A stretch of DNA of 64,000 nucleotides from Geosiphon pyriformis uo1. Its lineage: Eukaryota; Fungi; Glomeromycota. Position numbers and translations under genes: made by a program. Location: assembly GCA_016748015.1 (NCBI GenBank), contig JAAOMT010000352.1:310001-374000 (forward strand), given 5' to 3'. The notes beneath the pieces were generated by a model that saw only the letters and a list, made by a program, of their open reading frames with translations, was not told where the DNA came from and did no database searches. How positions within the stretch are numbered: the first letter of the stretch is position 1; each line of letters begins with the position of its first letter. Positions 1,566 to 53,297 of this stretch are shown piece after piece.

Positions 1566-2233
1566 TGTTATGATTGAAACCTATACTTCTTATTAATTAT
1601 CATATATATTAGTCATTGATATCACATAAATTAGCCACTCTATTTTTAGAAAATAATCATTGATCTGATCATTGACCTAGTCATTAATCTGATCATTGAT
1701 CACTTTTGACAGCTATATAAGCAATGAATCTTTTAATTGTAAAAAACATTAAAAAATCAAGAAAATCAAATAAATAAAATAACAACTTTCATTTTAATCT
1801 TTCTCTTATCACTAATTTCCCTTTCCTTACCTTCAAGTATCTGAACATCTTAAAAGATAAAAGATTATTTGTTGACATTTACCTACACTTTTTCTGAAAT
1901 ATATAAGTGTAGCATTTAAAGATTATTGAATAAAATGTGACTAAAGAGCACATCTGATACTTGATATTGAATTCTAAGAGTGCCAACATGAGACATAGAA
2001 TTATACCAAGTGTGATTATTTGTTAACAGTATGAACTATCCTTTTACCTTCAGATTCTCTGGTTACCCTTTGAAAAGAATAGTGACTAAAATATTTTATG
2101 AGACTAATCTCACACATTGAATCCATACTTATTCAATTTGCTCTTTGAAGTTGAATTCCCTTTAATTATTTCCATCACTCTACAATCTTGTTCTCCCTTG
2201 CTATCCATTAGCTTGTTACTTCAACCTATAACA
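1566..2233 (+). repeat. 5' LTR of A1 (668 bp)
   Basis: Direct repeat of 9356-10024; 12-bp repeat array at ~1656-1702; TATATAA at 1714-1720. Confidence 0.95.
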
Positions 2234-2239
2234 TAAAAG

Positions 2240-2256
2240 TGGTGCTCCCTGTGAGG
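2240..2256 (+). promoter_or_regulatory. Primer-binding site TGGTGCTCCCTGTGAGG (tRNA-Ile(UAU)-like)
   Basis: Lies 6 nt after the LTR and starts with TGG. Resembles the complement of eukaryotic tRNA-Ile(UAU) 3' ends (...CCUCACNNGGAGCACCA). Confidence 0.75.
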
Positions 2257-2285
2257 TTATCAAATTCCACTTTGTTTCCTATTGT

Positions 2286-3838
2286 ATAAGTGATTATTCA
2301 TACCTGCCACAACAATCAAAAGAACATTTTGAAGCATACAACAAAAACAATCTAAACTTTATTGAACTTAATCCTTTGCCCTCCTGCTTGATTTGCTTCC
2401 CCATTGAAAAACAATCCAGCAGACAATTCCAAGACTTTTAGAACTGGTTCCTGAATGAGCATTCAGCTGAAACTTATACAGCTTATACAATCTATTACTT
2501 TGACCAAGCTTATTTTGAAGACAATGTTAAAGAAAGAAACAACAATATTAATCAGCTCTTATATTCTACAACCTTTAAACAACAGTCTCCTAATTTCGAA
2601 TATCTGAATCATTAAATCCACATTTGGATTGCTGCCCATCAATCAACTAAAACTCTTCTTGAAACAGAAGAAAAAAGTTATCAAACCACTTTTGTTTTTG
2701 ATCTTTTTTCAAGTAAATCAGAACACTCCACACAAACAGTTATATCTGAACCAATGACTTAAGATCCCCTGCAACAAAACATTCTGATCGCTCTCCAAAG
2801 TATACAGACTGCTTTAGGGCAAAGAAACAACACCTCATTACCATTATTCAGAAATGATGCCTAAGATCCAATTGAATGATTGGATGATTTTGAGAGAGCT
2901 GTCACAGAAACCAATATGATAATGAATACAAGTTCCAAATTGTTGGTGGCTACCTCCAAGGCTCTTCTGTCACTTGGTTTTTACAAAAAACCAATGCCAA
3001 TGCTCAGCAAAAAATTATTAGATAGGCACCAGCAAATGCTGAAGAAGACAACATCTCTTTTACTATCCAGTTTGAAATAAAATTTAGAACTCCTATCTTA
3101 ATATCCAAATGGCATATGGAATTAGAAAGAAGAACTCAAGACTCTGGTGAGGTTGTGACAGAATATGCCAAAGCAATAAAAAAACTCATTAAACAGATAA
3201 ACTTTGGAAAAAATTAGACAGAAAAACAGAAAATACATTCTTTCATAAAAGGACTAAGAATTAATCTATCATATGTTTTTTGGCCCCTCCTGGCCCTAAA
3301 AGATAATTTCACAATGGATATGGCCATTAAACTTGCCCAGAGAATAGAAGACAACCAAAGAATACATCTAGGATTTACTCTTTTAGTTTTTGCTCCTGCT
3401 CTTGCCATGGCTCCAGCTTCACAAATAGCTGCTGCCTCTTTTGTCACTTACACTTAAGATCCCAATGAACAATTAATAGACAGACTTACTACTAACCTTG
3501 CTCGGCTATTAAAACCATTAGCCCAAGCAGTTAGAGACAACCAGCAATCCCAAAGACCCAGATTTGAACTCCGCTTTAATTAGCACCAACAACCACCATA
3601 TCAAAGACAACAAAATCATGGTCCATCTGTGTATTATCATTGTGGACTAACTGAACACTTTTCCAGAGACTGCAACAATCCTCCATTGCCCTCTTCAGTT
3701 CTTAGAAATCATGATACCCAGAATAACAGATCCAACAATAATAATGTTCCTAATCAAAGATCCAATCATGCCAACATTAATTTCTTTGAAGAGGATCCCC
3801 TAGTTGAAGCCACTGTTTATCAGCCTTTAAACTGGTAA
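2286..3838 (+). pseudogene. A1 gag (N-terminal domain, capsid, CCHC knuckle)
   Basis: Capsid-like WLDDFERA...; knuckle (C>Y)YHCGLTEHFSRDC at ~3630; many stops consistent with C>T/G>A changes. Confidence 0.85.
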
Positions 3839-3865
3839 GCGCACCTTCAAAGGGTGAGAGTGCAA
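3826..3865 (+). promoter_or_regulatory. -1 programmed ribosomal frameshift signal T_TTA_AAC plus downstream hairpin
   Basis: Heptamer in the correct gag phase, one codon before the gag stop. The -1 frame reads LVSAPSKGESASQ into pol. Conserved in A0 (~23396-23402) and A00 (~27633-27639). Confidence 0.8.
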
Positions 3866-6512
3866 GCCAATCAGAAGAAAACCTCTTTTATGTTTTTAAC
3901 CTAACTGATGATAATCATAATATAAATGAACTAGCAATCAACACCTCTAAATTAACCAGAAAAAAAAAAAAGCCAAGGTTGATTTCGTCTTGGACTCAAA
4001 CAAAGCATCCAAATCAATTGCTGATAACAATGAGCCACCAAAGGCCAAAGTTTTCAAGAATCCTCCAAAGTTGGAACCCCCAGAAATAGTACAAAAATTC
4101 GGCCCTTATTCTGTTGTCAAAGATCTCATAGAAACTCCAGTTCACATTACTTTTGGCTAATTAATGACCCATCCTCAATTCAGAAAAGACCTCCACAAAT
4201 TACTAATTCCAAAGAAAAAAACACCAAAGACCAACAAGTGTCCACACCAAGCTGAACTTGCTGACAACAGTAATGTTATCTCTCTCATCTGTAAAGCCCA
4301 AGTGGCTGGTTACTTTATTGATCTGATCCTGGACAGTGGATCATTTGTTAGCATCATTGCCAAACACTTTTTAGAAGCAATTGGCAAAAAAATTGATGAA
4401 CCTTCTACACAATTAATGACCAATATACATGGTAATAAAAAAAAAGGTTTGGGCATAGCCAAAGCCATTCCTGTTTGCATTAATGGCATCAGTATTAAAA
4501 CAAATATGGAAGTTTCTGAAGCTAAAGAATACCATCATAGTTGACAATAAGTGGCTTAAGAAAGCCAAAGCACTACTTGACTATGAACTTTGTAAGTTAA
4601 CCATTAGATGTGGTGAAAAATCCATTGTGGTTAAATGTCATTATTGGACAACTCCTCCAGTAACCAAACAGAACCAAGAAGAAGAACAATCAAATGAATC
4701 AGATGATGATGAGAGTGATGATAAAAATCAAAAAGAACAAGAAGAAACTGCTGAACTTGCTTATACTATTTTTACCAGCAATAGCAAGCCACTAGACAAC
4801 GTTAAAGCTAACAAAGAAAAAATCATAATAAATGGCAAGCTGATCTGCTGGCCCTACTATGATATCTTCAAAAGAACCTTTGACAAAAAACCTGGCAAGA
4901 AAGCAAAATACAGTTATTGGTGGCATGGCCCTTGTGCCAGATGCTGGTGCAACAAACTTTTTATTCCCTTAGTGATAAAGGCAAGTCCTGCCTAATCTAT
5001 TACAAAGATTGGGAACCAATTAGCTTGATACTTCAAGAAGAACTTAAAGAAGTACAAAAGTCCTTTGAGAATGAACCACCTGAAATCCAATCACTAGCTA
5101 TAGAACAAAGAAAACCTTCTTCTGAAGAAAGAAAAGTGGACATCAAAAATCTATTGGCTAGAAATAGCCCAGTTATCTCAAAAGAAAGTAACACCTCTAG
5201 ATGAACTCATATGATACAACACACTATTACCATCAAAGAAACTCACTCCATCCATTTGAAGCCTTATCAATCCAATTAATGCAATGATGAGTTTATCAAA
5301 AAAGAGAAAAACCAGATGAAAGATCTTGGATTCATACAAGAAACCAAGAGTGAATAGACTTTTCCAGTCGTAGTGCTATCCAAGAAAAGTAGAACTCTAG
5401 ACTTCTGTGTTAACTACCACTAATTAAATGCCATCACTATAAGAGACATGTATCTACTTCTCAAGATTGATGCAATGCTAGATAAATTCAATAGTGCTGC
5501 TTTCTTCTCAACCATCAACTTAACTGCTGGATTCTGGCAAGTAGAGATGGATCCAGAAAGCAGAAAAAAAACTGCCTTCATTACCAAATATGGCACCTAT
5601 GAATTCACAGTCATGTCTTTTGGTCTTACCAATGCTCCTTTCACTTTTTAATGCCTAATGGATAAAGTGTTTAAATCAGTAAAAAAAAACTTTGTTCTGG
5701 TTTACTTGGATAACATAATAGTATATTCAAAAACATAGGATGAACACCTTGAACATTTACAGAAGGTTTTTGACCTGCTCAAAAATGCTGATCTTAAAAT
5801 CAACCCAATTAAATCTTTCTTTGGAAGCCAATCCACCCAGTTCCTTGGTCATCTTATTACAAAAAATGGAATCTTCTCTGACCCAGCTAAAGTTGAAAAA
5901 GTTCAGAACATTAGACAACCAATAAATATTCCTAAACTATGCTCTTTTCTTGGTTTGGCCTCTTACTATTGCAAATTCATCAAAAATCTCTCTAAAATCG
6001 CCTTTCCTCTCAATCAGCTACTCAGGAAAAATGTCAATTATCACTGGGGCACTCATCAACAAAAAGCTTTCGAAATTCTAAAGAAAAAACTTGTTACTGA
6101 ACCAATTCTCAAGCAACCTGATTTGGACCAATCTTTCATCCTCCACACTGATACATCTGGCTATGGACTTGGTGCTGTCCTTTTACAGAAAGATGAAAAT
6201 GGCAGAAAACATGTCATAGCATATGCCAGTAGATCCTTTACACCAGCAGAAAAGAACTATTCAGTTACTGAACAGGAATGCTTAGCAGTAGTTTGGGTTA
6301 CTAGTTACTGGAATCAATATCTTCTTGGTGCAAAATTCTTAATGATAACAGATCATCAAGTCTTGGTTTGGCTGTGCAATAAAAAGAATCTGGAACACAA
6401 ACAAATAACTTACTGGATACTCTATTTGAATAAATTCGACTATGATATTCAACACCACAAAGGAGCAAATTATCAAAATGCTGACACTCTTTCTAGACTT
6501 ACCATTCAGTGA
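3832..6512 (+). pseudogene. A1 pol: protease, small Cys motif, RT, RNase H (ends TGA TAG)
   Basis: LILDSGS protease; VYLDNI (YLDD) RT; FILHTDTSGYGLGAVL...NYSVTEQECLAVV RNase H; NADTLSR end. Confidence 0.9.
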
Positions 6513-6570
6513 TAGTACAACTTTCCAAACCAAACCAACTTAATTATTAGTAACTCCTTCACAACCAAAC

Positions 6571-7890
6571 ATGATAATGGACTTGGACAACTACTCTGCC
6601 TTAATAGAATTTTTGGGTAAAGGACAATACCCACCAGAATACACTTGACAGCAAAGAGAACATTTGCACAAGCAATCAAATTTCTATTTGATTTGCTAGA
6701 ACCAATTATATAAAAGAAACAAAAAAGATCTTGACTGCCCTCAGAGAGTCATCAAATTTAAAGAAAGAAAAATTGTGATATACAACATGCACACAGACCC
6801 TTTAGCTGGACACTTTGGAAAAACAAAAACAATTCAGAAAACTTTAGCTCACTATTATTAGCCTACCTTGAAAAAAGACATTGCTTTGTACATAAAAACC
6901 TGTGATATCTGCCAAAGAAGAGGAAAACCCAATTGTAAAGAAGATATCCATCCAATCTCTGTTGGTCAACCATTTGACAGAATTGATATAGATGTTGTTA
7001 GACCCTTAACAATAATTCCTGATGGCAACAGATACATTATCACAGCTATTGACTATCTTACAAAGTGGGTAGAAGTAAAAGCCACTCCAGACCAAAAAGC
7101 AGTCTCAATAGCTAATTTTATTTATGAAAATATCATCTGCCATCATGGCTGTCCCAAAAAACTCTTATCTAATAGAGAAAGAGCTTTTTTCAGTACACTG
7201 GTTGAAGAACTTTGTAGAAAAATGGGAATACATTATAAATTTTTCTCTCTTTATTACCCCTAAACAAATGGTCTAGTGGAATATTTCAATAAAACACTAT
7301 GTAAAACTCTAGCCAAAACCAGTAAAAAAACAAACTTATGAGACAAAATACTGCCTTCAGCTTTGTTTGCTTATAGAACTGTGAATCATAACATAACAAG
7401 TTATGAACCTTTTTATCTGCTCTATGAATGCATAGCAACACTACCAATAGAAACTAATATTGAAACAATACTCTTTAAAGAGATTACAATAGGAAATTAC
7501 AAAGACATTTTGCAAAAAAAACTTGGTACTATTCTTAACTCCTTGGTAGAAGCATAAATAATTGCTTTTGAAAAGATAAAACAGTTCCAAGAAAAGCTTA
7601 AGAGAAAGAAAACCTATAAAACACTTTTTTTAAGTGTTGGTAACTTGGTACTAAAATACTGTTCAGACAGAGACAATGTTTATAATGATAAATTTTTTAG
7701 TTGATGGAAAAGATCTTTTATAGTCAACAAAGTTTTAAACAATGGTTCTTATATTTTTCAAGATCAATTCAGAACAATTTTCAATGATTGTCCTATCCAT
7801 GGTACACGACTCAAAAAATATTATAAACGACCTGATTGGCTGTTTGTTGTGATAATACTAACCCAAATGATCAGCAAAAATCAAGTGTAA
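6571..7890 (+). pseudogene. A1 integrase, separate ORF with its own ATG
   Basis: H-H-C-C zinc finger (MHTDPLAGHFG...TCDICQR); DDE core PFDRIDIDVV / AIDYLTKWVE; GPF-like C-terminus; no chromodomain; no net frameshift from ATG 6577 to TAA 7888-7890. Confidence 0.88.
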
Positions 7891-7931
7891 ATAAATGCAC
7901 TATTCTCAAAACAGAGATATCTTCAATTGAC

Positions 7932-9355
7932 ATAAACAATTATTTTCTGAATCAAAACATTCAAAATGCCTTCTATACTCTCCATGAGTATTGGATCAAA
8001 AACTATCCAAATGTTACTTTGACCATTGGAAAACAAACCACCATAACTAATAACAGTGGAATACATACTGTTATTAGACCAAAGAAAACTACTACCAGAA
8101 GAGAAAAAATTGGTAGCAAAATGAATAAATATCTATTGAAAAGTATAACAGCAGCTATACTCCTACCTTCCAATACAATTGGAAAAACACTCCAGAAAAT
8201 TTTATCCATAGACAAAAACTTGTTATATGGAAGGCAATTAAAGCTTTATGGTGTTACGTTGTAGTAAACATCAACTCTTTCCCAGGAATTGTTCATCTGG
8301 AAGCTCACTAAAAATGTGTAGTTATTTTGTTGTGAAAGTCAACTCTTCTACAGGAATCTTGTTTGTAGGCTACCCTAATGATTGTAATAAGAAAATAAAA
8401 GAAAAATAAAAGAAATATAAAAGAAATAAAATTTCTGTCAAGGGAACGTTTTCTATCCAGGCCTGGAGTCACTAACAGTTTACTGAAATTGGTAGCTAAT
8501 CAATTTCAAACTGTTTAGTAGGAATTAGTTAATTTCAAAAGTGAAATAATTCAGGATTTGATTTTTCGAATTATTTGATATTTATTTCATTTTTGTGTGT
8601 AAAGGATGATTCTAATTGTTAAAATCTAAAGTAAGATATATTTTCTTGAAGAAAAAAGCTCTTCTTTTATCCAACTTGTCGTAACACTATTCTATGAACT
8701 TGAACTTTGCTATTTTCTACAATTTTGCTGAACTAAAGATACATTTTGATGAACTACAAGTTATTTCTGCAAACTATTAAATATTTCGGTGAACTATCAA
8801 TTATTTTGGCGAATTTCTATAAATTTCGGTGAACTTTTAAATGTTACATAGTTCGGGATATTGCATGATTGATCATCGCAATTAGGTTACATTTGTGTTG
8901 TGTACAATTTGGGTTATTAATTAAATGATAATTTCGGACATTTTTTGCTAATGTAATAAGTGATAATTTGAAACGATGCTAATTAATAATAGGAATTATA
9001 AGATAATTTTATGCTAAATAATATCTCTAATTTCATTTGGTAACAATGGTTACCTTGATAAAATCATAGAGGATATGAAACTTATGAAGAAAACAACTTT
9101 AAAGATACAGGCAGAAATTTTGGGCATTATATGGTTAAATGTTTTAAGAGTTTTAATTATTGCTAAAAAAGCCAAAACTCTAATACAAAAATTTGGTCTC
9201 TTGAATACAAAACTCATTTTGCCTCAAGTGTTATATATCTTATCCACAAAAGACTTTAACAAACTAGTTAGCTTTGAGTTAGATAAAACTTTTCCAATAG
9301 ATTACACAATAAATAGCTTGATTTTGCTGGAGCTCAATCTCTTTGGAGAGGATAA
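7932..9355 (+). pseudogene. A1 ORF3 (non-env accessory ORF), interrupted by a solo LTR
   Basis: The frame continues across the solo LTR (..QLKLYG|YLDKIIEDMKL..). Start is ATA here but ATG in A0 (complement at 59-61). Confidence 0.7.
8252..9045 (-). mobile_element. Solo LTR of family B, U5-shortened variant
   Basis: Homologous to B LTRs; TGTTAC...GGTAACA ends; perfect TSD ATGG at 8248-8251 and 9046-9049; lacks ~165 bp at one end. Confidence 0.9.
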
Positions 9356-10024
9356 TGTTACAGTTGAAATCTATACTTTTTATTAATTATTACATTTATT
9401 AGCCATTGATGTCACATAAATTAGTCACTCTATTTTTAGAAATTGATCATTGACTTGATCAATGATCTGACTGTTAACCTGATCATTAATCACTTTTGAC
9501 AATTATATAAGCAATGAATCTCTTAGCTGTAGAAAAGCATGAAGAAATCAAGAAAATCAAATAAATAAAATAACAACTTTCATTTCAATTTTTCTTTTAT
9601 TGCTAATTTTCCTTTCCTTACCTTTAAGTATCTGAACATCTTAAAAAATAAAAGATTACTTGTTGGCATTTATCTACTCTTTTCCTGAAATGTATAAGTA
9701 TAGCATTTGAAGATTATTGAATAAAACGTGACTGAAGAGCACATCTGATACTTGATATTAAATTCTAAGAGTGTCAATATGAGACATACAATTATACCAA
9801 GTGTAATCATTTGTTGACAGTACAAACTATTTCTCTACCTTCAGATTCCCCAGTTACCCTTTGAAAAAAATAGTAACTAAGATATTTTATGAGATTGATT
9901 TCACACATTGAATCTATACTTATTCAATTCACTCTTTGAAGTTGAATTCCTTTTGATTATTTCCATTACCTTACAATCCTGTTCTCTCTTGCTATCCATT
10001 AGCTTGTTACTCCAACTCGTAACA
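9356..10024 (+). repeat. 3' LTR of A1
   Basis: Direct repeat of 1566-2233, preceded by the PPT. Confidence 0.95.
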
Positions 10025-10431
10025 CTATGAAAAGATATATTTTCTTAAAAAAAGAAGCTCTTCTTTTATACAACTTGTTGTAATACTAGTCTTTAAACTT
10101 GTACTTTTCTCTTTGCTACAATTTGGATGAACTAAAAATACATTTCAGCAAACTACAAGTTATTTCACTAAACTATTGATTATTTCGACCAATTTTTATT
10201 AATTTCAGTGAATTTTGATTATGTTAAATGGTTCAGAGTATTGTGTAATTTGATCATCTTAATTTTTAGAATACAAATCGGATTATTGATTGAGTAATAA
10301 TATTTGATAATTTGATTAAATAATAAGTGATAATCGAAATAATAATAATATATGCTAATTAATAATAGGAATTATGAGGGTAATTTTATGCTAATTGATA
10401 GCTAATTTCTACTAATAACATAATCTCCTCC

Positions 10432-11243: not shown

Positions 11244-12629
11244 TTAAGTGTTTAAGTTTGGTTGTTGTTCTATTATGATTATTGGTTCTAAATTTCAGAG
11301 AATATCTTCAGGATTAATTAAAGGAGAATATGTACCAATTTGTAGAATTAATGGTTCAAAATTGTTTCTGGAATAATAGTGTTTCAATCTATCTTCATTT
11401 GCAACTTTTGCTAGTATTTTGTTATCAAGTCTTAACTTGTATAATCTATTGTCTAGAATTTCGTGAATATAAAATAGTTCATCTCATTTGTTTTCAAATT
11501 TTCTACTTCATTGTTTTTCAGCCTTAGTTCTGTGTAAGAGAACCTAATTCCCAATTTTAAATTCATTGGTAATTGGTGGCAGTTTGTTGTCATGTCTTTC
11601 TTTTTGTAGAGCTTGAAAGTGTTCAATGTGAGTGGCTACTATGTGTCTCTTTCCTTTCAATGTACTAAGAAAAGTATAGACTCTTCTTTGGAGTATTTCT
11701 TGAAAGTTTTCTTCATTAATTTGTTGTACTGAATATGTTTCCACTGTAAAATTAATTGGTAGTGTTGCTGTTCTTTCATAAGTAAGATCAAATGATGTGT
11801 GTTTTGTAGTATCTTGTTTTAGTGTTCTGTATGCTAATAATACTGATGGAATAAAGATATCCCATTTCTGCTCAAAATCTGTTGAGACTTTGGCTAAAAA
11901 TTTACACAATGTTTTGTTGAAACATTTTACAAATCCATTTGTTTGAGAGTAATAAGGTGATAATAAAGGTCTTTTAACATTGAATTGTTCACAAATTTCT
12001 TGTATCAAGTTGTTCACAAAATGTGTTTCTTGATCTAATAAAAGTTTAATTGAGCATCCATGTCTACAAATAATGTCTTCATAGATGAAATTTATTACTG
12101 ATTTTGCATTTGCTTTTTGGATGGCTCTAGCTTCAGACCATTTGGTAAGATAATCTACTGCAACTGCAACATAATGATTTCTTTGGGTTGTGATAAATAA
12201 TGATCCAACTAAATCAATTCTAACTCTGTTAAAAGGTTGTCCAACTTTAATTGGATTTAAAAGTTCTGTAGAGTGAATTTCTTCTCTTCTTTGACAACTA
12301 TTACAAGATTCTACATATTGTCAAATGTTTTTTTGCATGTAAGGCCAAAAATAATGTTCAAAGATTCTTTGGATTGTTCTATCTTTTTCCAAGTGTGTTG
12401 AAGATAGATCTGTGTGCATGTTGTACAGAATTGTTTCTTTTTCATTTTTCTGTACTAATCTGAGTGGTTGGTTTGGGTTTTTACGATTTTTGTAATAAAT
12501 TTTGTTGTGGTGTATGAAATATTGTTTGAATTGGTATTGTAATCAATGTTTTTCACTTGGAAACCAATTTTCTACCATGGTAAGAGTCTCCAAATAGTTC
12601 TTAAGATTGTTGTAATTTCTGGTATCTAT
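11244..12629 (-). pseudogene. B1 integrase, separate ORF (start ATG apparently mutated to ATA)
   Basis: ILYNMHTD...; SPYYSQTNGFVKCFNKTL; WDIFIPSVLLAYRT motifs. Confidence 0.85.
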
Positions 12630-12684
12630 TGTTGTTTTGTTGTTTTGTTGGTAGTGATAAGTTGTAGTGAAATTGTTAGTGGTA

Positions 12685-15600
12685 TTAATCTTGTCTCATT
12701 TTTGAAAGACTATCAACATTGGTGTGTAGTTTTTCTAGTTTGTAATGTACAATATATTTGTAGTCTGTTAAGAAATCATTCTATTGAGACTGTTTGGCAC
12801 TTTGTTTAGTTTTTTTTTTATTGAGCCATTTGAGACCAATATTGTCAGTTATAATGTCAAATTTTTTTTCATTTTTCAGGTATTGTTGAAAATGTTTAAT
12901 AACCCAAATGACTGCAGCAGCTTCCAATTCAGTTGAGCCATATTTGAGTTCTGTTGGTTTGAGTGTCCTACTGGCATAAGCAATGATTTGTTCTTGGCCA
13001 TTTTTATCTAATTGTGATAAGATGGCACCAAAAGCTATGTGTAAAACATTAGTAGCTAGTTAAAACCATTTGTTGAAGTCTGAATAAGCAAGAACTAAGG
13101 CTGTTGTTAATTTTGTTTTGAGGGTTTTAAAAACTTTTTGTTGTTCTTCTGTCCATTGGTATAGCACGTTTTTGTTGGTAAGATAATTGAGTGGTTTGGC
13201 AATCTCTGAGAATTCTTTTATGAATTTTTGATAGTAGGAGGCTAATTCTACAAATTCTTGTAGTTCTGTAGTATTTCTGAGTGTTTGAAAGTTCTTAACA
13301 GCACTAATTGTTCTAGGATTTGGTTTGACTCCATCTTTGCTAACAATGTGTCCAAGAAAGATTAAATTTGTTTTTTCAAAGTGACATTTCTCAATGTTCA
13401 ACTTTAATCCTGCTTTCCATAATCATTGAAAAACTTCTCGCAGATGGATGAGATAAGCTTCAAAGCTTGATAAGTACACATCAGTGTCATCAAGATAGAC
13501 AACTACTAATTGCTATAAGAGTCTTTTATATATTACATCTATAAGTTGCTGAAATGTTGCTGGTACATTGTAGAATTCAAAAGACATAACATTGAACTCA
13601 TAGTTTCTTTCTTAAGTAGTGAATGCTGTTTTGGGTCGATTTTTTGGGTTCATTTTGACTTGTCAGTATTCACTTTCCAAGTCTAAAGTTAAGAAAAACT
13701 TGGTTTTTCTTAAGGCATTCAGCATATCATCAATTCTTGGAAGAAGGTAGGCATTTCCAATTGTCATGTTGTTGAGCTGATGATAATTTATACAGAATCT
13801 GATTTTTCTGTTTTTCTTTTTAACAAGAACTATTGGTGAGGCCCAAAGACTTTTTGATGGTTAAATTAATCTATTATTGAGCATTCTCTGCACTTTTTTC
13901 TTAATGAATTGGTGGCTGGCAAGTGGTATTTGATAAGCTTGTTGACATTTTGGTGGAGCATTTCCTGTGTGGATCTGATGTTGAACAATATCAGTTTTTC
14001 CAAAGTCATTGTTGTTTTTTGCAAATATGTTAGCGAATTCAGTTATCAGTTGTTTTAATTGTCTTTGTTGTTGGGGTTCTAAGGAACTCATGTTAATTCA
14101 AGAGAGTTTTTCTTCCAACAGGTGGTAGTTTTCAGTAGTAGAAATAATGTTTGGATTTGGAAATAGTGTATGTCTTATAATTTTGATGAAATTTAAGACA
14201 ATTTGAGAGTTTTCATCTTGGAAGATATTGCTGTGTATGATTTTAATCTCTAATTTATTCAATAAGACAATAGGGTAATTATTGGGGTTGTAGAATATAA
14301 CTCAAAATTTTTTCATTCCATTGAGGATATAAACATTTGAGATTGAGATTTCATGCTTTAAACAGATTCATTCATTGGATTCAAAGATTTGTTGGGTAGT
14401 GGTGGGTGTAAATTTCATGATATTTTCCAAAAGATAAAATAGTAATTGGTTGAAGAAGTTGAAAAATCTGGTAAGATTCATTCTGTGTATTGAGAGCTAT
14501 GTTTACTGGCACTGTAAATCATCCAATTAAACCAAAATCTTGAGTTTTTCTTTTACTTTTTCCCAATTGTTCTCTGTTTTTAACTGATTGTAAACCCGAA
14601 ATATTGATTAAGGGTAAGTAAATTGCTTGGGCAATTTTTTCAGCATGTTCAATTTTTAATGGTTTGTCCGTTTTATTCTGTAGCATAATAGTAATGTTTC
14701 CAATATATCCTGCATCTATAATTTCTTTTTTAATGTTGATTTCTTTGCTTGCCAATGATAATCTGGATGCAATTTGAACCATTGCTCTAGGTGGAATTTC
14801 AAGAGCAATTTTAAAATTGATTTTTGTCAAGAACTTTGGTTGGAAAACCAAAGTATCTTTTTTTGAATATCTTAGATCATATTCAGCATCAATTTTGTGT
14901 GCTTTTTCTGGTCTGATTCCTTGGCCATAGTTGTCAAAATATTTAAGTTGTAGAGGTGGTTGATTTTTAAGAAAATAAATAGGGGTGGTTGGTAGTTTTT
15001 TTACCAGTTTAGATACTCCAAATTCGATTTCATTTTCATTATTCTTATCTGGCAAGAGAATGCTAAGAGCATAGCATTCTAAACACTATTGGTCATCACA
15101 AAGCATAACACATTCTTCACATAATTGAATGTTTATTTGCTCTAATCATTAAATTTGAGCTTCTTTGGTTGGATATGTATAAGGTTTTTACTTCATCTTT
15201 ATAATCAAATCCAGCTAATTCTATGGTATACTCAATGTATTTAGCTTCTTTCATTTGGCAGACATCTTCTTGGGTGGCTCTATTGATTAATGCTATTGTT
15301 AAATTAAAAATCATTTCAGCATTATGAAGGTAATGATAGAGTTTATTGAGAGCACTGTTATATGCTATATCAAATGGTGTTCCTCTTCTGACTTTTTTCG
15401 AAATTGATAGAGCATATTAACAGGTTTGATTACATACTTCTCCTCTCATTGCAACATCAATTCAGTTGTATTCTTTTAGTAGCATATCTCCACATGTAAG
15501 ACAAGATGTGTTGTCCTATTTTCCACTTCTTTTTGGAGATTCAAATCGTTTTCTATGGCATGCTTTGCAGAAATAGCAGGTGCAAGTTTCATATTCCTCT

Positions 15601-19281: not shown

Positions 19282-21998
19282 ATAGATATTTTCTTTGTGA
19301 TTGGGGGGTTTTTTTTTTAGTAGATGTTACAGGTTTTAATGTATTCAGCAATGTTCTTTTCCAAAGTAGGCCAATAATAACAAGCTAAAAGTTTTCTGAA
19401 TTGTCTTTGTTTTTCCAAAGTGTTCAGCTAATGGGTCAGTATACATATTGTATATTACAATTTCTCTTTTTTCAAATCTGATAACTTTATGGGAACAGTC
19501 AAGATTTTTTCTGTTTCTTTTATATAATTGGTTCTGGCAAATCAAATTTCTATTTGATTGTTTGTACAAATGTTCTCTTTGCTGTTGAGTGTATTTTGGT
19601 GGGTATTGTCTTTTACCCAAAAATTCTATTAAGACAGAATAGTTGTTCAAGTCCATTATTGTGTTTGTTTATGAAGGAGTTATTAATAATTAAGTTGGTT
19701 TGATTTGAGAGGTTATACTATCACTGAATGGTAAATTTAAAGAGAGCATTAGCATTTTGATGATTTGTTTCTTTATGGTGTTGAATATCATAGTCAAATT
19801 CATTCAAGTGGAATATCCAACAAGTTATTTGTTTGTGTTCTAGCTTCTTTTTATTGCACAGTCAAACCAAGGCTTGATGATTTGTTACTACTAGGAATTT
19901 CACACCAAGAAGATATTGATCCCAATAACTAGTAGCCCAAACTACTACCAAACATTCTTTGTTTAGTAACTGAATAGTTTTTTTCTGCTGGTATAAGAGA
20001 TCTATTAGCATATACTATAGCATGTTTTCTGTCATTTTTATCTTTCTGTGAAAAGACAGCACCAAGTCTATAGCCAAATGTATTAGTGTGAAGAATAAAA
20101 GATTGGTTCAGATCAGATTGCTTAAGGATTGGTTTAGTAACAAGTTTTTTCTTTAGAATTTCAAAAGCTTTTTGTTGATGAGTGCCCCAGTAGTAGTTGA
20201 CATTTTTTCTGAGTAGCTGATTGAAAAGAAAAGTGATTTTGGAGAAATTCTTGATAAATTTACAATAGTAAGAAGCCAAACCAAGAAAAAAGCATAGTTC
20301 AGAAACATTTATTGGTTGTCTAATATTTTGGACTTTTTTAATCTTAGCTGAATTAGGGAAGATTCCATCTTTTGTAATAAAATGACCAAAGAACTGGGTG
20401 GATTGACATCCAAAAAAAGATTTGATTAGGTTGATCTTAAGGCCAGCATTTCTGAGCAGATCAAAAACCTTCTGTAAATGTTTAAGGTATTTATTCCAGA
20501 TTTTTGAGTAGACTATTATGTTATCTAAGTAGACTAAACAAAGTTTTCTTTTACTGATTTAAACACTTTGTCTATTAGGCATTAAAAGATGGGAGGGACA
20601 TTAGTAAGACCAAAAAACATAACTGTGAATTCATAAGTGCCATACTTGATAATAAAAGCAGTTTTTTTTCTGCTTTTTGAATTCATTTTTACTTGCTAGA
20701 ATCTAGCAGTTAAGTCAATAATTGAAAAGAAAGCAGCACCATTGAATTTATCTAGCATTGCATCAATTTTGGAAAGTAGATACATGTTTCTTATAGTAAT
20801 GGCATTTAGTTGGCAGTAGTCAACACAAAAGCATAGGGTTCTACCTTTCTTGAATACTACTACAATTGGGAAAGCCTATTTACTTTTGGTTTTTTGTATG
20901 AATCTAAGATCTTTTATCCAGTTTATTTTTTTTTTAATGAATTCATTATTGTGTTAATTAGATTGATAAGGCTTCAAATAGATGGGACAAGTTTCTTTGG
21001 TGGTGATAGTGTGTTATATTACATGAGTTCATTCAGAAGTATTATCTTCTTTTGAGATAATGGGCTATTTTTAGCCAACAGATTTTCAATGTCCATTTTT
21101 TTTCTTTAGAGGAAGATTTTCTTTGTTCTACAACTAGTAATTGGATTTTAGGTGGTTCATTCTTAAAAGACTTTTATACTTCTTTTAGTTCTTTTCTGGG
21201 TATTAAACTAATTGGCTCTTAATTTTTGTAATAGATCAGACAGAACTTGCATTTATCACTAGGAGAATACAAAGATTTATTGCACCAATATCTGGCACAA
21301 AAACCATGTTATTAATAACTGTATTTTGCTTTCTTGTCAGATTTTCTATCAAAAGTTTTTCTGAAAATATCATAGTAAGGCCAGCAAATTAGCTTGTTAT
21401 TTATCATAATTTCTTCTTTGTTAGCTTTAATATTGTCTAGTGGCTTGTCATTGCTGGTAAAAATAGTATAAGTGAGTTCAGCAGTTTTTTTTGTTCTTCT
21501 TGATTTTCTTTTTTATTGCTCTTATCATCATTTGATTCATTTGATTGTTTTTTTTTTTGGTTTTGCTTGGGTACTGGAGGAGTTGTCCAATAATAGCATT
21601 TAACCACAATGGGCTTTTCACCACATCTGATGGTTAGCTCACAAAGTTCATAGTCAAGTAATGCTTTGGCTTTCTTGAGCCACTTATTGCCAACAATTAT
21701 GGTGTACTCTTTTGTTTTAAATACTTTCATGTCAGTTTTAATGCTGATGCCATTGATGTGAACAGAAACAGCTTTGGCTATGCTCAGGTTTTTCTTTTTG
21801 TCATCATGTACATTGGTTATAGACTGAATAGAAGGTTTATTAATCTTTTTTCTAATGGCTTCTAGAAAGTGTTTGGCAATTACACTGACAGATGATCTAC
21901 TGTCTAGGATCAAATCAATAAAGTAACTAGCCACTTGGACTTTGCAAATCAGAAGAGTGACATTGCTGTTGTCAGCAAGTTTAGCTTAGTAAGGATGT

Positions 21999-38800: not shown

Positions 38801-38898
38801 TAGAAAATAGAACTTTTACCATTTAATTATACAGTACATTATAAAAAAAGAAAAAAAAAGGAAATGCTAATAGATTGTTACAAATGAGACAAATTTAA
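32802..38898 (+). pseudogene. C gag-pol (gag, PR, Cys-rich domain, dUTPase, RT, RNase H)
   Basis: KLEKFTGEEDNTQVWLND capsid; LILDNESAGS protease; WSSPVVLV..FCVDY..LN and VYLDNT RT; HPIAYASRSL RNase H; TAA at 38896-38898. Confidence 0.9.
36637..37072 (+). other. dUTPase domain within C pol
   Basis: DARFDL, AFRNSLAKKG, IIDTGYVGNI, KIAQAIF and GI*GFRS motifs. Confidence 0.9.
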
Positions 38899-38930
38899 AA
38901 ACATTTCAAACTCAAAAATATAACAAAAAG

Positions 38931-40306
38931 ATGAATATACAAAAATACCACCAACTACAATATTATATAAATACCTAATTGTTCAAGAAAAAATTATCTC
39001 AAAAAGAACAAAAAAACATAAAACAACAATCAAAATATTTCATCAACCATCAAAATATACTTTACCAGAAGAACAGAAGAAATCCAGATCACTCAACCAG
39101 AGTAATTACAGAACCAAAGAAAAAGACAATATTATTCAACATACACTCAAATCCAACAGCAAGACATTTTCATAAAAAAGCAACCATAAAAAGAACCAGA
39201 GAAAGATATTATTAGCCATCAATGTATTCAGACATCATTCAATATGTTCAAAATTGTGATACTTGTCAGAAAAGAGGAAAAACAAAACTCAGTGAACCAT
39301 TAAGACCAATCAAAATAAAACAACCATTCAATCATATTGGAATTGACTTAGTCGAATCATTAACAATTACCAGCAGAGGCAACAGATTTATTGCAGTAGC
39401 CATGGATTATCTTACTAAATGGCCAAAAGCAAAAGCCATTCAAAGAGCAGATGCAAAATCTGTTGCCAAATTTGTTCATCAAGATTTGATCTGTCAACAT
39501 AGATGTTCAAAAAAATTATTATCTGATCAAGAAACTCACTTTCTGAACAGAATACTAACAGAATTAAGCCAAAGATTTGGAATCAAAAGACCATTATCAT
39601 CACCATATTATCCACAAACCAATGAATTAGTAGAAAGATTCAATAGAACACTGTGTGAAGCAATTGCCAAGATCAGTTAAGAAAACCAGGAAAAATGAGA
39701 TTTGTTTATATCATCAGTATTATTGGCTTATCAAACAATAAAACAAGATACTACACAAACAACACCATTTAAATTAGTATACAGTAGAACAGCAATCTTA
39801 CCAGTTGAGATAAAGGTCAACACATATTCAACTGAACCAATAACAGAAGAGAATTTCCAAGAAACTTTGTTGAGAAAAATATATGACTTAATGAAAATTC
39901 TAGAAAACAAACAATAAAAAACAGCTAATAACATACAACAGTCACAAGAAAAACAGAAAAAAAGACATGACAACCAACTACCAAATAAACCAGTTGAATT
40001 TAGAATTGAAGACAAAGTACTTCTACATCATGCCAAAATAGAAAAACAATGGAGTGGAAAATTTGACCCCAAATGGGATGAACCATTTTACATAAAAAAA
40101 TTCTAGGAAATGGAGCTTATAAATTAAGATGGAACAACAAAATCTTAGCCAAAGCAGCACATAGTAATTGATTGAAACCATATCACCAGATAGCATCATC
40201 ATCTACCAATAATATTCCACAACTGGGAGTACAGTGAATACTAGTCCAACCAGATGAGATTCCATGAGATTTGGAACCAACCATAATCATCAGACCAAAC
40301 ATGTAA
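38931..40306 (+). pseudogene. C integrase, separate ORF with its own ATG
   Basis: MNIQKYHQL... start; IHSNPTARHFH...CDTCQKRG; PFNHIGIDLV; MDYLTKWP; YPQTNELVERFNRTL. Confidence 0.88.
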
Positions 40307-42894: not shown

Positions 42895-44421
42895 GTATGA
42901 ATTTAATATACAAGATCAGTTTCATAAAATATCTTAATTGCTATTTTTTTTAAAAAATAACTGAAAAATTTGAAGATAGAGAAATAATTTATACTGTTGT
43001 TACCAGTAGAATTTTAGCTATTAATTAGCATGAAATTACCCTTATAATTCCTATTATTAATTAGTATACATTATTATTAATTCGATTATCACTTATTATT
43101 TAATCAAATTATCAAATATCATTACTCAATTAATAATCCAATTTGTACTCTAGAAATTAAGATAATCAAATTACACAATACCCTGAACCATTTAACATAG
43201 TCAAAATTCGCCGAAATTAATGAAAATTCGCCGAAATAATCAAATAGTTTAGTGAAATAACTTGTAGTTTGCCGAAATGTATCTTTAGTTCACCCAAATT
43301 ATAGAAAAGAGAAAAGTACAAGTTCAAAGACTAGTACTACAACAAGTTGTATAAAAGAAGAGCTTCTCTCTTCAAGAAAATGTATCTTCTCCTAGTATCT
43401 TAACATAGCATCCTACTTTAGATATCTTAATTGAAACAAATTACCTTTTACATATTCAAATAAAAATCAAATATTCAAAAACCAAATCCTTAAATTATTA
43501 CACTTAAAATTCCCTCAACACAACTAACGTTTTTGAAATTGATTAGCTACCAATTTCAGTAATCTGTTAGTGACTCCAGGTCTGGATAGAAAACGTTTCC
43601 CTTGATAAAATTCTATTTCTTTTACATTTTTTTTATTTTCTTTTATTTTTTATTATAATCATTAGGGTAACCTACAGACGAGATTCTTATAGAAGAGTTG
43701 ACTTTTACAGCAAAGTAACTACACATTTTTAGTGAGCTTCCAGATGAGCAATTTCTGGGAAAGAGTTGACGTTTACTACAACATAACTACACAAAGCAAC
43801 TGGCACGGAATTGGCCATTCCACTTATAAGCCCAGCAGTTCAAATTATAGGAGATAATTTGAAAATAAATTCAGTTACTGGAGGTCCAACTACTTCCTAG
43901 AAACGTGAATTCACAGCAAAACAACATTAACAACATTCAAAAAAAGAGACCAAAAACCTTTGGTAACACTGTTAACAAATGATAATACATTAGTATAATT
44001 CTATGTCTTATATTGGTATTTATAGAATTTAATATTAAATATCAGATATATTCTTTAGTCACATTTTATTCAATAATCTTTAAATATTACAATTATACAA
44101 GTCAGAAAAAAGATAGATAAATGCCAACAAGTAATTTTTTATCTCAAGATATTCAGATACTTGAAAGTAAGAAAAGAAAAATTAGCAAAAAGAGAAGAAT
44201 TAAGATAAAGTTATTATTTTATTTTTTTGATTTGTATATGCTTTTTTACAGTTAAGAAATTCATTATTTATATAGCTATTGAAAGTAGTCAATAACCAGA
44301 TCAATGACTAAGCCAATAATTAAGTCAATAATTACTATCTAAAAATAGAGTGGCTAATTATATAACATTAGTGGCTAATACATATAATAACTAATAAAAG
44401 ATATAAGTTTTAATTGTAACA
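42895..44421 (-). repeat. Truncated family A LTR (possibly the 5' LTR of A000), split by a solo B LTR
   Basis: 42895-42997 plus 43973-44421 match 29273-29877; ends GTAACA at 44421. Confidence 0.85.
42998..43968 (+). mobile_element. Solo LTR of family B (971 bp)
   Basis: TGTTACC...GGTAACA; TSD CTGT at 42994-42997 and 43969-43972. Confidence 0.93.
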
Positions 44422-45257
44422 ACAATATAGCACAATAATAATTTTAGAAAAGTAATAATTAACATAGTAGCAAGTACTATTTTACAATAATAACAAGTAC
44501 CAGTTTGTAATAGTGGTCAATATTAACTGGTAATAGCAGCAAACACCAAGTTAAAATATTAAAAAAAAAGTATTATAATATGTTTTCTCATAAAACTACA
44601 AACATATATATAGATAGCAGCTTTAATATTGAGAAAAACAATAAATCATAAAACAAGTCATAAAAAAAATCATAAAAACAAATTATTAAACAATTTATTC
44701 AACAGTTCCACTTTAATTATCTTTTAGTTTTTATTTTTAAAATAAATATTCACAAAAATTTTTAATCAAAAAAAAATAAAAAAATTGTTGAAACTAAATT
44801 ATCATAATTTAAAGTATTAAGAAACTTATTTGTATTATTTATTGAATAAAACTATTATTTATCAGCTGAATTTCTTAAAAGAATAATCTTTAATCAAGAT
44901 TATTTATGTTGTTACTAATTGATAAAAGCTTTATTGTAAGAATTAAAAAAAGTATTAAAAACCATTAACATTTTTGTTTCTAAATTAGAGAAATACATTA
45001 AGCAATTGCAAAGATAATCTTAGAAAAAACCTCAAACAATAGGTAGATTTCAGTTTAGTCTTTAAAAAAAGTATATAAATATAAACAACAATTAGAATTA
45101 AGAAATAACTTATATTATGACATTAAAAAAAAGCCTTCAGTATAAATATTAACATTATTACACAAATAGAATTGAGGAATTCACAAGAGACTAATTGCAA
45201 TTAAAATGGAATATTAATATTTAATATATCAAGAAAATCATCCCATAACAATAACAA

Positions 45258-45738
45258 TTTACCTAGTTTTTTGGTCATCTTATTACAAAAGATAAAATCT
45301 TTTCTAATTCAGTCAAGATTAAAAAAAGTTCAAATTATTAAACAACTAATAAATATTTATGAATTATGCTCTTTTCTTGGTTTAATATCTTATTATTAAA
45401 AGTTTGTTAAAAATTTCTCCAAAATCACTTTTTTGCTTAATTAACTATTCAAAAAAACTGTCAATTATTACTAAAGCATATATTAGCAAAAAATTTTTAA
45501 AACTCTAAAATAAAAACTAGTTACTAAACTAATTCTTATGTAATCTGATTTAAATCAATTTTTTATTCTTTATATTAATGTATTTAGCTTAAGACTTGGT
45601 GTTGTTTTCTCTTAAAAAGATAAAAATAACAAAGAGCATATTATAGCTTATACCAGCTGATTATTTTTCTTAGCAGAACAAAACTACTTAATTACTAAAC
45701 AGGAATGTTTAACAGTAGTATAGACTATTAATTATTAA
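45258..45738 (+). mobile_element. Heavily decayed family A RT/RNase H fragment
   Basis: Colinear with ~5834-6310, with pervasive C>T/G>A changes. Confidence 0.75.
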
Positions 45739-46304
45739 GAGTATATAATATAAAATAAAATAAATAAAATAAAAAAAAAAAAAATTAGTATTATATTAAT
45801 AGCTATAAATAAAAGCTGTTAGTTTAGTATAATTAAGTAGTAGATGTTATTAACATAAGTTGCTAATGAAATTAGAGAATAATAATTTTAATTTAATAAA
45901 AAAAATAACATAAATTAGATAATAAAACAATACTTTTATTTGATATTTGGATAATTTTACTTTAAGATATAGAAAACTATTTTTTAAAGAAAGAAATATG
46001 TCAGAAATATTTATTGTTAACTAGTTAAAAACTTGTTTAAGTTTTTTTTACTTTTAATACTATTGCTATATATATATATTTTTTGTTATACAAGATCTTA
46101 TACATTTTTATTTTTTTTTATGCTATTTTCTAAAACTGTTTATTTTTGAGCAAGTTGCCATAATTTTTTGGAAATATGTTCAATTTTTATAAATGTGCAC
46201 ATTTCTGAAAATATGCTTACATATTGAGTATTATTTTTTTATTAATTTATTCTTATAATTTATCTTTTTATTTTTTTCTTGTATTCTTTTTTTATAAATA
46301 ATAC

Positions 46305-48590
46305 TATCTATTAGACTGTAATAAAATAGAAAAAATACTTGAGTCAAAAATTTGATATATATATAAACTACAAAGAATTAACATTAATTTAGAAGCAAAA
46401 ATTTGAAAATAATTATTATACAAAATAAAATAGAATTATCATAATTTAATTATACAGTATATTATAAAAAGAAAAAAAAATAGAAATACCAATAGTTTAT
46501 TCAAAATGAAACAAATTTAAGAACATTTTAACACCAAAAATAAGTTAAAAGATAAATATACAAAAATATTAACAACTTTAATATTATATTAATATTTAAC
46601 TGTTTAAGAAAAATTATTTTAGAATAAACAAAACAATATAAAACAATATAAAACAATTAAAATATTTTATTACTTATTAAAATATACTATATTAAAAAAA
46701 TAGAAAAGAACCAAACTAATTACTTAAAGTAGTTACAAAACCAGAAAAGAATACAATACTATTTAATATATATTTAAAGCTAACAACAGAATATTTTTAT
46801 AAAAAATCACAATTAAAAGAACTAAAAAACAATATTATTAGTTATTAATATATTTAGACATTATTTAATATGTTTAAAATTGTAATGTTTATTAAAAAAA
46901 AAAGAAACAAAATCTAGTAAACTATTAAGACCAATTAAAGTAAAACAATTATTTAATTAGATTAGGATTAATTTAATAAAACTACTAACAATTATTAATA
47001 AAAACAATAAATATATAGCTATAGCAATAGACTATTTTATTAAATAGCCAGAAGTTAAAGTCATTCAAAGAACCAATACAGAAATAATAGCAGAATTTAT
47101 GTATAAAAAACTAATTTGTTATTATAAATGTCTAAAAAAATTATTATTAGACCAAAAAACTTATTTTGTAAATAAAACATTAATAAAATTAAGTCAAAAA
47201 TTTGGAATTATTATTATATTATCTACAAATAAATAACTTAGTTAAAAAGTTTAATAAAACATTATATAAAACAATTACCAAAATCAGTTAGAAAAATCAA
47301 GAGGAATAGAACTTATTTATGCTATTAATATTATTTGCTTATTAAACAATAAAACAAAATATAACTTAGACAATACTATTTGAATTGTTCTATAATAAAA
47401 CAGTAATACTATTAGTTAAAATAAATATTCAAACATATTTAACTAAACCAATAATAAAAGCTATCTTTTAAACAATATTGTTATAAAAAACATAATTTAA
47501 TAAAAACACTAAAAAATAAATAAAAAAAGCAGCCAATAATATTTAAAAGTCACAAAAAAGATAACATAATAACTAGTTATTAGATAAACCAGTTAAATTC
47601 AAGATTGGAAACAAAGTATTTTTATATTATACTAAAACAAAAAAATAATAGAATAAAAAGTTTGATTTCAAATAGAATAGTTTATTTTATATTAAAGAAA
47701 TTTTAGAAAATAAAACATACAAATTAAGATAGGACAATAAAATTTTAGCCAAAGCAATATATAGTAATTAACTTAAATTATATTACAACAGAATATTATT
47801 AATTATTAATAATATTCTACAATTAGAAGTACAAAAAATACCAATTAAACCATATAAAATTCCACAAAATTTGAAACTAATTATAATTATTAAAGCAAAT
47901 ATATATATTAAATCAGATATAAAGACCCAATACATATAACAAAAAAAAACCAAAAAAAAAATAAAAATTACTGATAATATTTACTTTATTATACAACTAA
48001 ACATAAAAATTACAATTAATAAATAAATTATCTAATATAAAAACACAAAAAAAAACAAGAGCTTTAAAATAATTAACAATACTAAGTACATCTATTATCT
48101 AAAAATATAGTAAATAAAATAATAAAAAAAGTAAAAACAGTGTTGAAAAATCTAATAATGACTATAGCATATTAGAAAATAACCAAAAAAAATTGAAATC
48201 AATAAACATAATAATTTGCTAAAAACTTTTGTTATTACCACTTAGGAAAACAATTAAATATTTAAAACTTATATATAAATAAAACCAAATAAATATTCAA
48301 TCTAATCATATTACAATAGATAAAACAATTTGTAAAAAAAATAGCTTAATTACATATACAAGAGCAATTTACTGCTTACAAATAGAATTTTAAAATTATT
48401 TAAAAATATTGCTATATTTAATAATATATACAATAACAATTAACCAATAATAAAAAATTATTAATGTTCAGTTTAAAAAATTACAAACCAGAATTGACAA
48501 TGTAATTCTAAAAAAAAAGTAATAAAGTTAATTTAAGAAAAAAACTTAAAAGATTTTAACAGAGCTTAATATTAAAAAAAAATATTATTA
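46305..48590 (+). mobile_element. Heavily decayed C-like RNase H end, integrase and ORF3
   Basis: Colinear with ~38680-41005; extremely AT-rich. Confidence 0.75.
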
Positions 48591-48950
48591 TCTATGTAAT
48601 AATAGAAAAAGATAAAAGAAATAAATAAAACTACTATTAATAAAACTATGTATAACCATTAATTTACAAACAGGTTTATATTTTGTAAAATGTTGAAAAG
48701 TTTGAAAAACAAAAAACATTTTTTTCTTAAAACATTTTTTTCTTTTTAAAGAATTTTGAACATAAGTTTTTTTTTCAGTTATAAAAATCAATTAATAAGA
48801 TTAAAAACTATTAACAGTATTTTAAACATATAATTCGAGATCTTAATACTTTTAGTTTCACAATTATAATTATAATTTAATGGTAACAATTTTAATTTTA
48901 TATTTGCGCAAAAAGCTACAAAAAGATTAAATTAACAATTTGACGGGTTG

Positions 48951-51393: not shown

Positions 51394-51564
51394 TATAATT
51401 TTACAGAAAAATAAGCTCTGTTATTCAGAAAATTATTGAAAAAAAAGGGTTTGTTTGTTTGTTAGAATCTGACATGGATAAATTATGCATAATTCATTGT
51501 CCACGCAAATCTTCATTCAATTTAAATTAACTGCCTAAAAGGTTTGAAGACCAGTTTCATAGGT

Positions 51565-52963: not shown

Positions 52964-53297
52964 TATGTTTGAATTGGCTTTTTCAAAGGCTCTTTTTAAT
53001 TTTGGAGTCTTCTAGACAAAGCGATAAATATGTTTTATCATGCGACAACTTTATTACCTCTATAATTTTACAAACCAATATCAAATATTCGTTGACGGGC
53101 TTTCCTATTTCTAAACAAAAGTTGGACACTATGCTCTAATCTTTGACCCAATAAATTTGGGATCTATGCAGCCTCGATTAGGTGACCAAATAATACTCCA
53201 ATTCGGGAAATGCAAAAAAAAAAAAGATTGAAATATTGCTAATAAATCGAGACTAGACCTTTCCGCACTTCAAAATTCTCGAAAATTTTTATTTCCT

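Follow-up and report, generated by a model that had tools for sequence, protein, structure and literature searches.

A Ty3/gypsy-type LTR retrotransposon lineage with integrase as a separate gene, represented by a dead copy in Geosiphon pyriformis

Introduction

Long terminal repeat (LTR) retrotransposons and retroviruses are regarded as delivering integrase, in general, at the tail end of Pol. Here we describe element A, which lies in a 64,000-nucleotide (nt) stretch of Geosiphon pyriformis uo1 (contig JAAOMT010000352.1, positions 310,001 to 374,000 of the forward strand; the whole stretch is called the window) and is a dead copy from a Ty3/gypsy-type LTR retrotransposon lineage in which integrase is a separate gene with its own ATG. 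Canonical Ty3/gypsy elements (Metaviridae, including Ty3, DGLT-A and the fungal elements of PMC2864245) resemble A in having LTRs, gag and the order protease (PR), reverse transcriptase (RT), RNase H and integrase. In these elements, however, integrase ends the Pol polyprotein, with cleavage between RT/RNase H and integrase in Ty3 and a single frame in DGLT-A (PMC6101501, PMC2864245), whereas in the lineage of A pol stops and integrase begins at its own ATG.

Other described systems share single traits with A. Foamy virus Pol is likewise an enzyme made apart from Gag, which has to be packaged through RNA or protein contacts (PMC7828637), but there the whole of Pol is split off by splicing and the precursor is packaged with integrase attached, whereas here integrase alone is separate. 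LINE-1 and SART1, as well as victoriviruses and hypoviruses, have a second long frame after a stop on one RNA (PMC5972666, PMC10275272); the LINE-1 spacer measures 63 nt against 67 in A, and UAAUG and AUGA overlaps are present in relatives of A. Those non-LTR elements and RNA viruses couple a Gag-like or capsid frame to a polymerase, whereas the break described here lies inside pol, in an LTR element, and is known from sequence. The Gypsy integrases with a YPYY motif (Athila/Tat, DGLT-A, Gypsy-1_RO) and Ginger1 resemble the split integrase in their length of about 400 amino acids and in being extended at the N-terminus, ahead of the zinc finger. Terminal inverted repeats and a tail of the OTU or Ulp1 type characterise Ginger1, which has neither RT nor LTR, whereas A has both LTRs and RT (PMC2836005). 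As such, A was rejected as a Ginger1 DNA transposon. No description of integrase as a gene of its own was found in the literature searched, with most subscription journals, supplements, and Repbase and GyDB, which may contain an entry for it, lying outside its coverage.

Results and discussion

The junction between pol and integrase

The features that define the split in the window are the following.

5208..6509, plus strand: reverse transcriptase and RNase H of A, with the end NADTLSRLTIQ (RVT_1 E 1.2e-28, RT_RNaseH E 1e-37)
6510..6515, plus strand: tandem pol stops TGA TAG
6516..6576, plus strand: intercistronic spacer of A, 61 nt, A/C-rich, G-poor and unstructured
6577..7890, plus strand: stand-alone integrase gene of A, with its own ATG, an N-terminal extension, H2C2, core and C-terminal domain
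19654..19723, minus strand: junction of copy A0, with TGA TAG at 19723-19718, 61 nt and ATG at 19656, again 67 nt
12627..12687, minus strand: split junction of family B, with the pol stop at 12687 and the integrase start 58 nt on, reading ATA here
38896..38933, plus strand: split junction of family C, with the pol stop near 38896 and the integrase ATG at 38931, in a decayed copy whose frame is uncertain

The frame at 5739-6512 of A reads through ...NADTLSRLTIQ into TGA (6510-6512) and TAG (6513-6515), and an integrase (Integrase_H2C2 E 1e-15, rve E 8.5e-6) that reads MDLDNYSALIEFL... begins with ATG GAC at 6577. Counting from the T of TGA to the integrase ATG gives 67 nt, which places integrase in the +1 frame, and the gap between TAG and ATG is 61 nt. 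Re-reading confirmed these coordinates, which an earlier note on this DNA had reported, together with those of the second copy, A0, in which TGA TAG at 19723 and ATG at 19656 are again 67 nt apart. The integrase frame of A comprises 437 codons and carries 7 decay stops, and the spacer is 42% A, 27% C and 5% G with a folding energy of -0.2 kcal/mol. An extra in-frame ATG at 6571 in A has ACA at the matching site of A0, and both would fit CpG decay of a single codon; similarly, the ATA start of family B is probably a decayed ATG.

The split in related loci and proteins

The note had proposed that a separate integrase is a feature of the lineage, and the relatives bear this out. Among 81 loci examined, the RNase H end was visible upstream of integrase in 38, of which 16 were fused, all with at most 39% integrase identity to the query, and 22 were scored as split. 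Two of the latter, L066 and L067, look like broken fused copies (no ATG; a frameshift inside integrase) and were left out, so that 20 split loci remain. An unbroken integrase frame of 399-542 amino acids is present in 13 of these 20, several have open pol frames of 480-1479 codons, and families B and C are split as well. All 14 metagenome loci with at least 40% integrase identity and a visible junction are split.

Protein searches point the same way. The RNase H end motif lies at most 30 residues from the C-terminus in 85 of the 120 closest RT-RNase H proteins, the others comprising 18 with longer tails (12 of them with integrase) and 17 without the motif, and the RT-RNase H proteins within one cluster stop at the same place. 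On the integrase side, in a search restricted to proteins of 238-758 amino acids, 89 of 120 matches start with M[DEN], and in no case does an RNase H end precede the integrase. The integrase of A is 52-59% identical to intact proteins of 434-438 amino acids that start at the same Met, and this Met1 is invariant in 74 aligned integrases, which had been chosen as full-length. Close relatives with a named host occur in Rhizophagus, Cetraspora, Paraglomus and Entrophospora, and most of the highest-ranking Atlas clusters belong to Mucoromycota; taken by themselves, these relatives point to an arbuscular mycorrhizal fungus as the probable host. As the layout is found in intact relatives too, the split belongs to the lineage and is not decay; it is real, conserved and wider than family A.

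These observations bear directly on the proposal that the stops and frame change of A are decay inherited from a defective master copy, which we consider extremely unlikely. The genome is indeed heavily C-to-T mutated: at sites where C is kept in any of three copies, about a quarter of the copies read T, more so at CpG, and three of the eight premature stops within RT-RNase H (5277, 5355, 5649) are common to A and A0, two of them occurring in the third copy too. Common stops thus do arise by decay here, and with A and A0 84% identical, the earlier argument that two copies with the same spacing speak against random decay is weak when taken alone; its conclusion is borne out by the intact relatives, which are split too. 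Against inherited decay stand the same layout in relatives with unbroken frames, the split in families B and C, and the shared Met at which the closest integrases (P0002, P0003, P0004, P0362) all start. Family A is present in many copies in run X1, from which 57,317 contigs were aligned; the 670 contigs at the junction show no insertion or deletion at 3% within the spacer interior, a comparison that covers positions 6521-6565 and has the stops and the ATG outside it. Loose-end groups of 7, 9 and 6 contigs carry two tandem stops, and among the 40 of 1636 difference rows listed in a wider comparison of this run none falls at the junction. Runs X2 and X3 have next to no coverage of this stretch.

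A further alternative is that recoding (frameshift or readthrough), or splicing of an intron that contains the stop, restores a fused Pol. A frame running unbroken from RNase H into integrase, one of the observations named beforehand as refuting the proposal, was looked for among close relatives and none was found. The lineage seems to recode at other sites, and database models (P0122, P0123, P0244, P0247; Cetraspora and R. clarus) link RNase H to integrase; in a search for longer forms the best matches were three Cetraspora or R. clarus gene models, two of them RNase H-integrase and one gag-integrase. Yet in all of the joined models the end motif of RNase H and a portion of the integrase start are missing, and we read them as predicted introns that dodge the pol stop. 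No GT-AG intron of at least 40 nt could link integrase in frame to an intact RNase H end in 15 of the 20 junctions, A included (for L013 and L020 the test took in donors near the stop only), and Met1 is kept. Integrase lies in frame 0, +1 and +2 relative to pol in 4, 6 and 10 of the 20 split loci, respectively, and the distance from stop to ATG ranges from -8 to 730 nt. The use of all three frames and the unconstrained length of the spacer speak against a single programmed frameshift or readthrough. Recoding, one of the routes to a separate integrase that the note had listed, is thus improbable, while reinitiation and a subgenomic RNA remain candidates. As such, restoration of a fused Pol is very unlikely and already largely refuted.

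Phylogeny and origin of the separate integrase

A FastTree analysis of 251 RT-RNase H rows placed 103 of the 104 rows ending after RNase H in one group with a support of 98, with three fused rows at the base of this group; the sampling of the rows was centred on a split query, a choice that promotes clustering. The corresponding integrase tree has a group of 55 rows, made up of split, stand-alone and gene-model sequences, that contains no fused row (support 80). In more careful trees (34-35 rows, 11 of them split), a single split clade was neither shown nor rejected (approximately unbiased test, p-AU 0.32 and 0.33). The careful integrase tree rejects a grouping with the RT neighbours P0128/P0227 (p-AU 0.004) and groups the split integrases with four fused proteins, next to the integrase-OTU protein P0127. 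The RT tree, for which, as for the larger RT tree, no named reference elements were included and in which the deep branches lack resolution, does not reject the integrase grouping (p-AU 0.2), and the two trees do not separate fission from capture. Gmr1-like gypsy elements have integrase upstream of RT; in A integrase comes after RNase H, and the integrase-first loci form a separate group.

As a separate observation, L048 has a split junction (1075-1356) and an RT on a long branch outside the main split group, possibly a second origin.

Translation of integrase

Judging from the sequence, we tentatively suggest that integrase is most likely translated from full-length RNA, by ribosomes that begin anew once they have passed the stop of pol; the mechanism may differ between families. 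Gag and Gag-PR-RT-RNase H would be made first, the latter through a candidate -1 frameshift at TTTAAAC, and part of the 40S subunits would stay on the RNA past TGA TAG, cross the unstructured 61-nt spacer and start at ATG 6577, while in other families restart would occur where the integrase start overlaps the pol stop. Precedents are LINE-1, with its 63-nt spacer and translational coupling of ORF1 and ORF2, and the stop-restart of SART1, victoriviruses and hypoviruses (PMC5972666, PMC10275272).

Several features of the junctions are consistent with restart. In 8 of 30 loci the integrase ATG and an upstream stop are -8 to +8 nt apart, this stop being that of pol in 4 of the 8, with overlaps including TAATG and ATGA. 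In addition, 13 of 78 pol tails end in [NDHY][GE], compared with 6 of 452 inner positions (p 8e-8, a value that is too small given that the tails are related); such dipeptides are forced by an overlapping ATG-R under the stop. Within clusters the tail sequence varies, while its length and the [NDHY][GE] end stay. In L022, pol, two small frames and integrase form a chain whose last two joins overlap, and in L005 and L009 the integrase stop overlaps the ATG of the next gene. A purine occupies position -3 in 25 of 30 integrase starts, compared with 108 of 177 ATGs at inner positions (p 0.02). When translated in the frame of pol, the spacer of A ends D-N-G at the ATG, like the [NDHY][GE] tails, and A may thus descend from an overlap junction whose stop moved upstream.

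A number of points weigh against restart. A is without a stop/start overlap, and the spacer measures at least 30 nt in 16 of the 20 pol-integrase junctions. The overlaps in L033 and L035 (2 of the 8) involve short frames and are possibly due to chance, L006 being such a chance match, and stop/start overlaps could in general stem from genome compaction. A calicivirus-type start, which uses a ribosome-binding site upstream of termination (TURBS), lies within a few tens of nt of the stop, closer than in A (67 nt) and as found at the pol junctions of 4 of 20 relatives; the calicivirus-type UGGGA occurs in 1 of 30 upstream windows as against 46 of 253 background windows. Apart from AT-rich words, no k-mer upstream of the integrase ATG is widely common. 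AUG depletion in short spacers is slight (6 observed, 11.4 expected), the binomial p-values of this upstream analysis assume a uniform null, and an out-of-frame AUG stands just upstream of the integrase start in L026 and L060. The spacers of L010, L020 and L022 extend over 368-730 nt with 7-12 AUGs, which are normal numbers, so that plain rescanning cannot cross them. Finally, if pol is reached by frameshift only, reinitiation would yield very little integrase.

The long AUG-rich spacers of these three loci would be accounted for if integrase came from its own subgenomic mRNA, produced by an internal promoter, by splicing from near the 5' LTR as for env or foamy virus pol, or by processing of the full-length RNA. 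We regard this origin as possible but rather unlikely. It would also explain why the spacers are unconstrained in length and frame and why the start context is good, and foamy viruses make Pol in this way (PMC7828637). The spacer of A contains a branch-point-like TTAAT followed by TAG (6540-6550), but A0 reads TAA in place of this TAG. Moreover, pyrimidine-AG is absent from six short spacers (L001, L004, L016, L026, L052, L060), an AUG intervenes between the last AG and the integrase ATG in L004 and L021, and a universal splice acceptor was sought in the spacers of split loci and none was found. The repeated exact stop/start overlaps are likewise not predicted by a subgenomic mRNA.

In seven loci of one integrase subclade, a two-helix RNA motif of about 40 nt lies 3-15 nt before the integrase ATG, and in L013 it fills the 65-nt spacer (4458-4506). 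A covariance model added L038 and, more weakly, L007, and otherwise found nothing below E 0.5 in 82 sources, so that the motif is present in L013, L003, L005, L007, L009, L023, L024, L036 and L038. Both sides vary in 10 of its 13 pairs, and 94.9% of cells are paired, in an alignment of related rows that was fitted to the structure; none of 500 shuffles was as good, and slid controls were 23-47% paired. There was no family match in Rfam, no match of the exact pattern in viral and prokaryote genome collections, and no occurrence in the 64-kb window. The nine loci with this covarying structure just upstream of the integrase frame bring in a local RNA element akin to an internal ribosome entry site (IRES), which would recruit ribosomes at the integrase ATG independently of upstream translation, the structure of the one subclade and the A/C-rich leaders of the others then being two solutions. 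We find this doubtful: neither the window nor most split loci have the structure, which occurs in 9 of 82 sources, seven of the nine loci are kin from which the model was built, and the structure could equally serve reinitiation, RNA processing or packaging.

The integrase protein and its route to the particle

The split-lineage integrase is closest to the integrases of Ty3 and foamy virus. Its profile has Ty3 7q5b as the best solved match (E 8e-54), and the predicted L006 integrase (predicted local distance difference test, pLDDT, 92) matches foamy virus and Ty3 integrases, with a template modelling (TM) score of 0.70 for Ty3. This model folds from residue 3, where helix 1 starts, which suggests that the Met sits at the natural protein start. 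By eye, the N-terminal extension appears to correspond to the YPYY motif, and Pfam detected integrase families only in the integrases of A and L006.

As the note had reasoned, a separate integrase would presumably need another packaging route. By analogy, the free protein might join the particle or the cDNA by binding of its N-terminal extension to RNase H, or by RNA binding. The integrase N-terminal extension of DGLT-A, which is among the elements with a YPYY extension (PMC2836005), binds RNase H in two-hybrid and pull-down experiments (PMC6101501), and the separately made Pol of foamy virus is packaged through its RNA (PMC7828637).

A large lineage that has dropped delivery as a Pol tail shows that production and recruitment of integrase can be independent of Pol. 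Its members, whose spacers range from an overlap up to hundreds of bases, offer natural material for testing reinitiation behind very long fungal frames, and they supply a new candidate RNA element. The split would also account for mis-annotation, as gene models of mycorrhizal fungi bridge the break with introns that are apparently false, and an integrase standing alone could be classed as a DNA transposase. We further speculate, with considerable reserve, that these are polycistronic LTR retroelements in which one RNA encodes gag, PR-RT-RNase H and integrase along with a small fourth protein whose fold has no match, and in which the RNA structure of about 40 nt or A/C-rich leaders start integrase, and that the free integrase, its gene derived from Ginger1-type transposases or ancestral to them, meets the cDNA outside the polyprotein route.

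Architecture of element A and its place in the window

Element A extends over 1566-10024 and, besides the features given above, comprises the following.

1562-1565 and 10025-10028: 4-bp target duplication CTAT flanking A
1566..2233, plus strand: 5' LTR with TGTTA...TAACA ends
2240..2256, plus strand: primer-binding-site-like stretch, TGG-initial, 6 nt past the 5' LTR
2954..3838, plus strand: decayed gag, in which no start was recognised, ending TTTAAAC-TGG-TAA (Retrotrans_gag E 3.5e-5)
3826..5207, plus strand: decayed protease region, in which a DSG motif lies near 4330, and an acidic linker
7891..9352, plus strand: decayed region past integrase, with a possible further frame of 101 stop-free codons at 9048-9350
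8252-9045: solo LTR of another family interrupting this downstream region
9345-9352, plus strand: short purine tract before the 3' LTR
9356..10024, plus strand: 3' LTR

A has the Ty3/gypsy traits of two TG...CA LTRs, a short target duplication and gag followed by the PR-RT-RNase H-integrase order, and its integrase is of the Ty3/gypsy type (H2C2, DDE core, C-terminal domain). It departs from the canonical layout in that integrase is not encoded inside the Pol polyprotein, and it is thus filed as a variant lineage that works like Ty3/gypsy and not as an ordinary member. The two LTRs are alike in 584 of 672 columns, and a search for tRNA genes within the window found none. The TTTAAAC heptamer at 3826-3832, a candidate -1 frameshift site from gag into pol, also closes gag in the intact relatives L006 and L021. 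A Pfam scan of the decayed protease copy of A gave no match; aspartyl protease families match the corresponding frame of L006.

Bases 1-48000 of the window are a CpG-depleted nest of LTR elements, in which A lies inside an LTR of a family B element, itself inside the integrase of A0, and host genes lying past 48 kb encode, among others, eIF3d, tubulin cofactor C and HMG-CoA synthase. The CpG observed/expected ratio is 0-0.3 in the repeats (1-48000) and 0.7-1.1 in the genes (48001-64000), with a sharp boundary, and 44000-48000 is extremely AT-rich (GC 16-19%). In each of the three insertions checked (997-1000, 1562-1565, 8248-8251) the ends read TGTTA...TAACA and the target duplication is 4 bp long, being either ATGG or CTAT.

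Further features of the relatives

Many relatives encode a helical protein of about 145 amino acids after integrase (L003:1915-2364 and kin; 477 clusters at 50% identity), for which a confident model was obtained (pLDDT 95). It has no Pfam family, no match among solved sequences or in the Atlas, and no Foldseek match at E 0.001 in viral and PDB libraries. Its profile matches 14 loci and, weakly, family B (10700-10491, minus strand, E 0.002), and does not match A.

The remaining observations concern gag and pol. Long N-terminal Gag extensions with a common CxxC stretch occur at L020:460-1500, L021:460-2200 and L013:6801-7436, without a Pfam match apart from gag domains. Acidic extensions of 300-590 amino acids lie between RNase H and the pol stop at L013:3497-4441 and L020:4945-6705, that of L013 having no Pfam match. 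In L010 (870-875), L020 (3358-3363) and L029 (1585-1590), RT is in frame with protease or gag-protease across TGA CTA, which we take to be a readthrough-signal context, and L029 has a second in-frame TGA after gag. L006 has a stop and a short gap between protease and RT (1864-1900), its gag, protease, RT-RNase H and integrase lying in four frames. In the window, a stretch that by eye is dUTPase-like lies between the protease and RT of the family B pol (14519-15085, minus strand), and among the relatives P0317, P0333 and P0339 carry PF00692 and others a NUDIX domain (PF00293).

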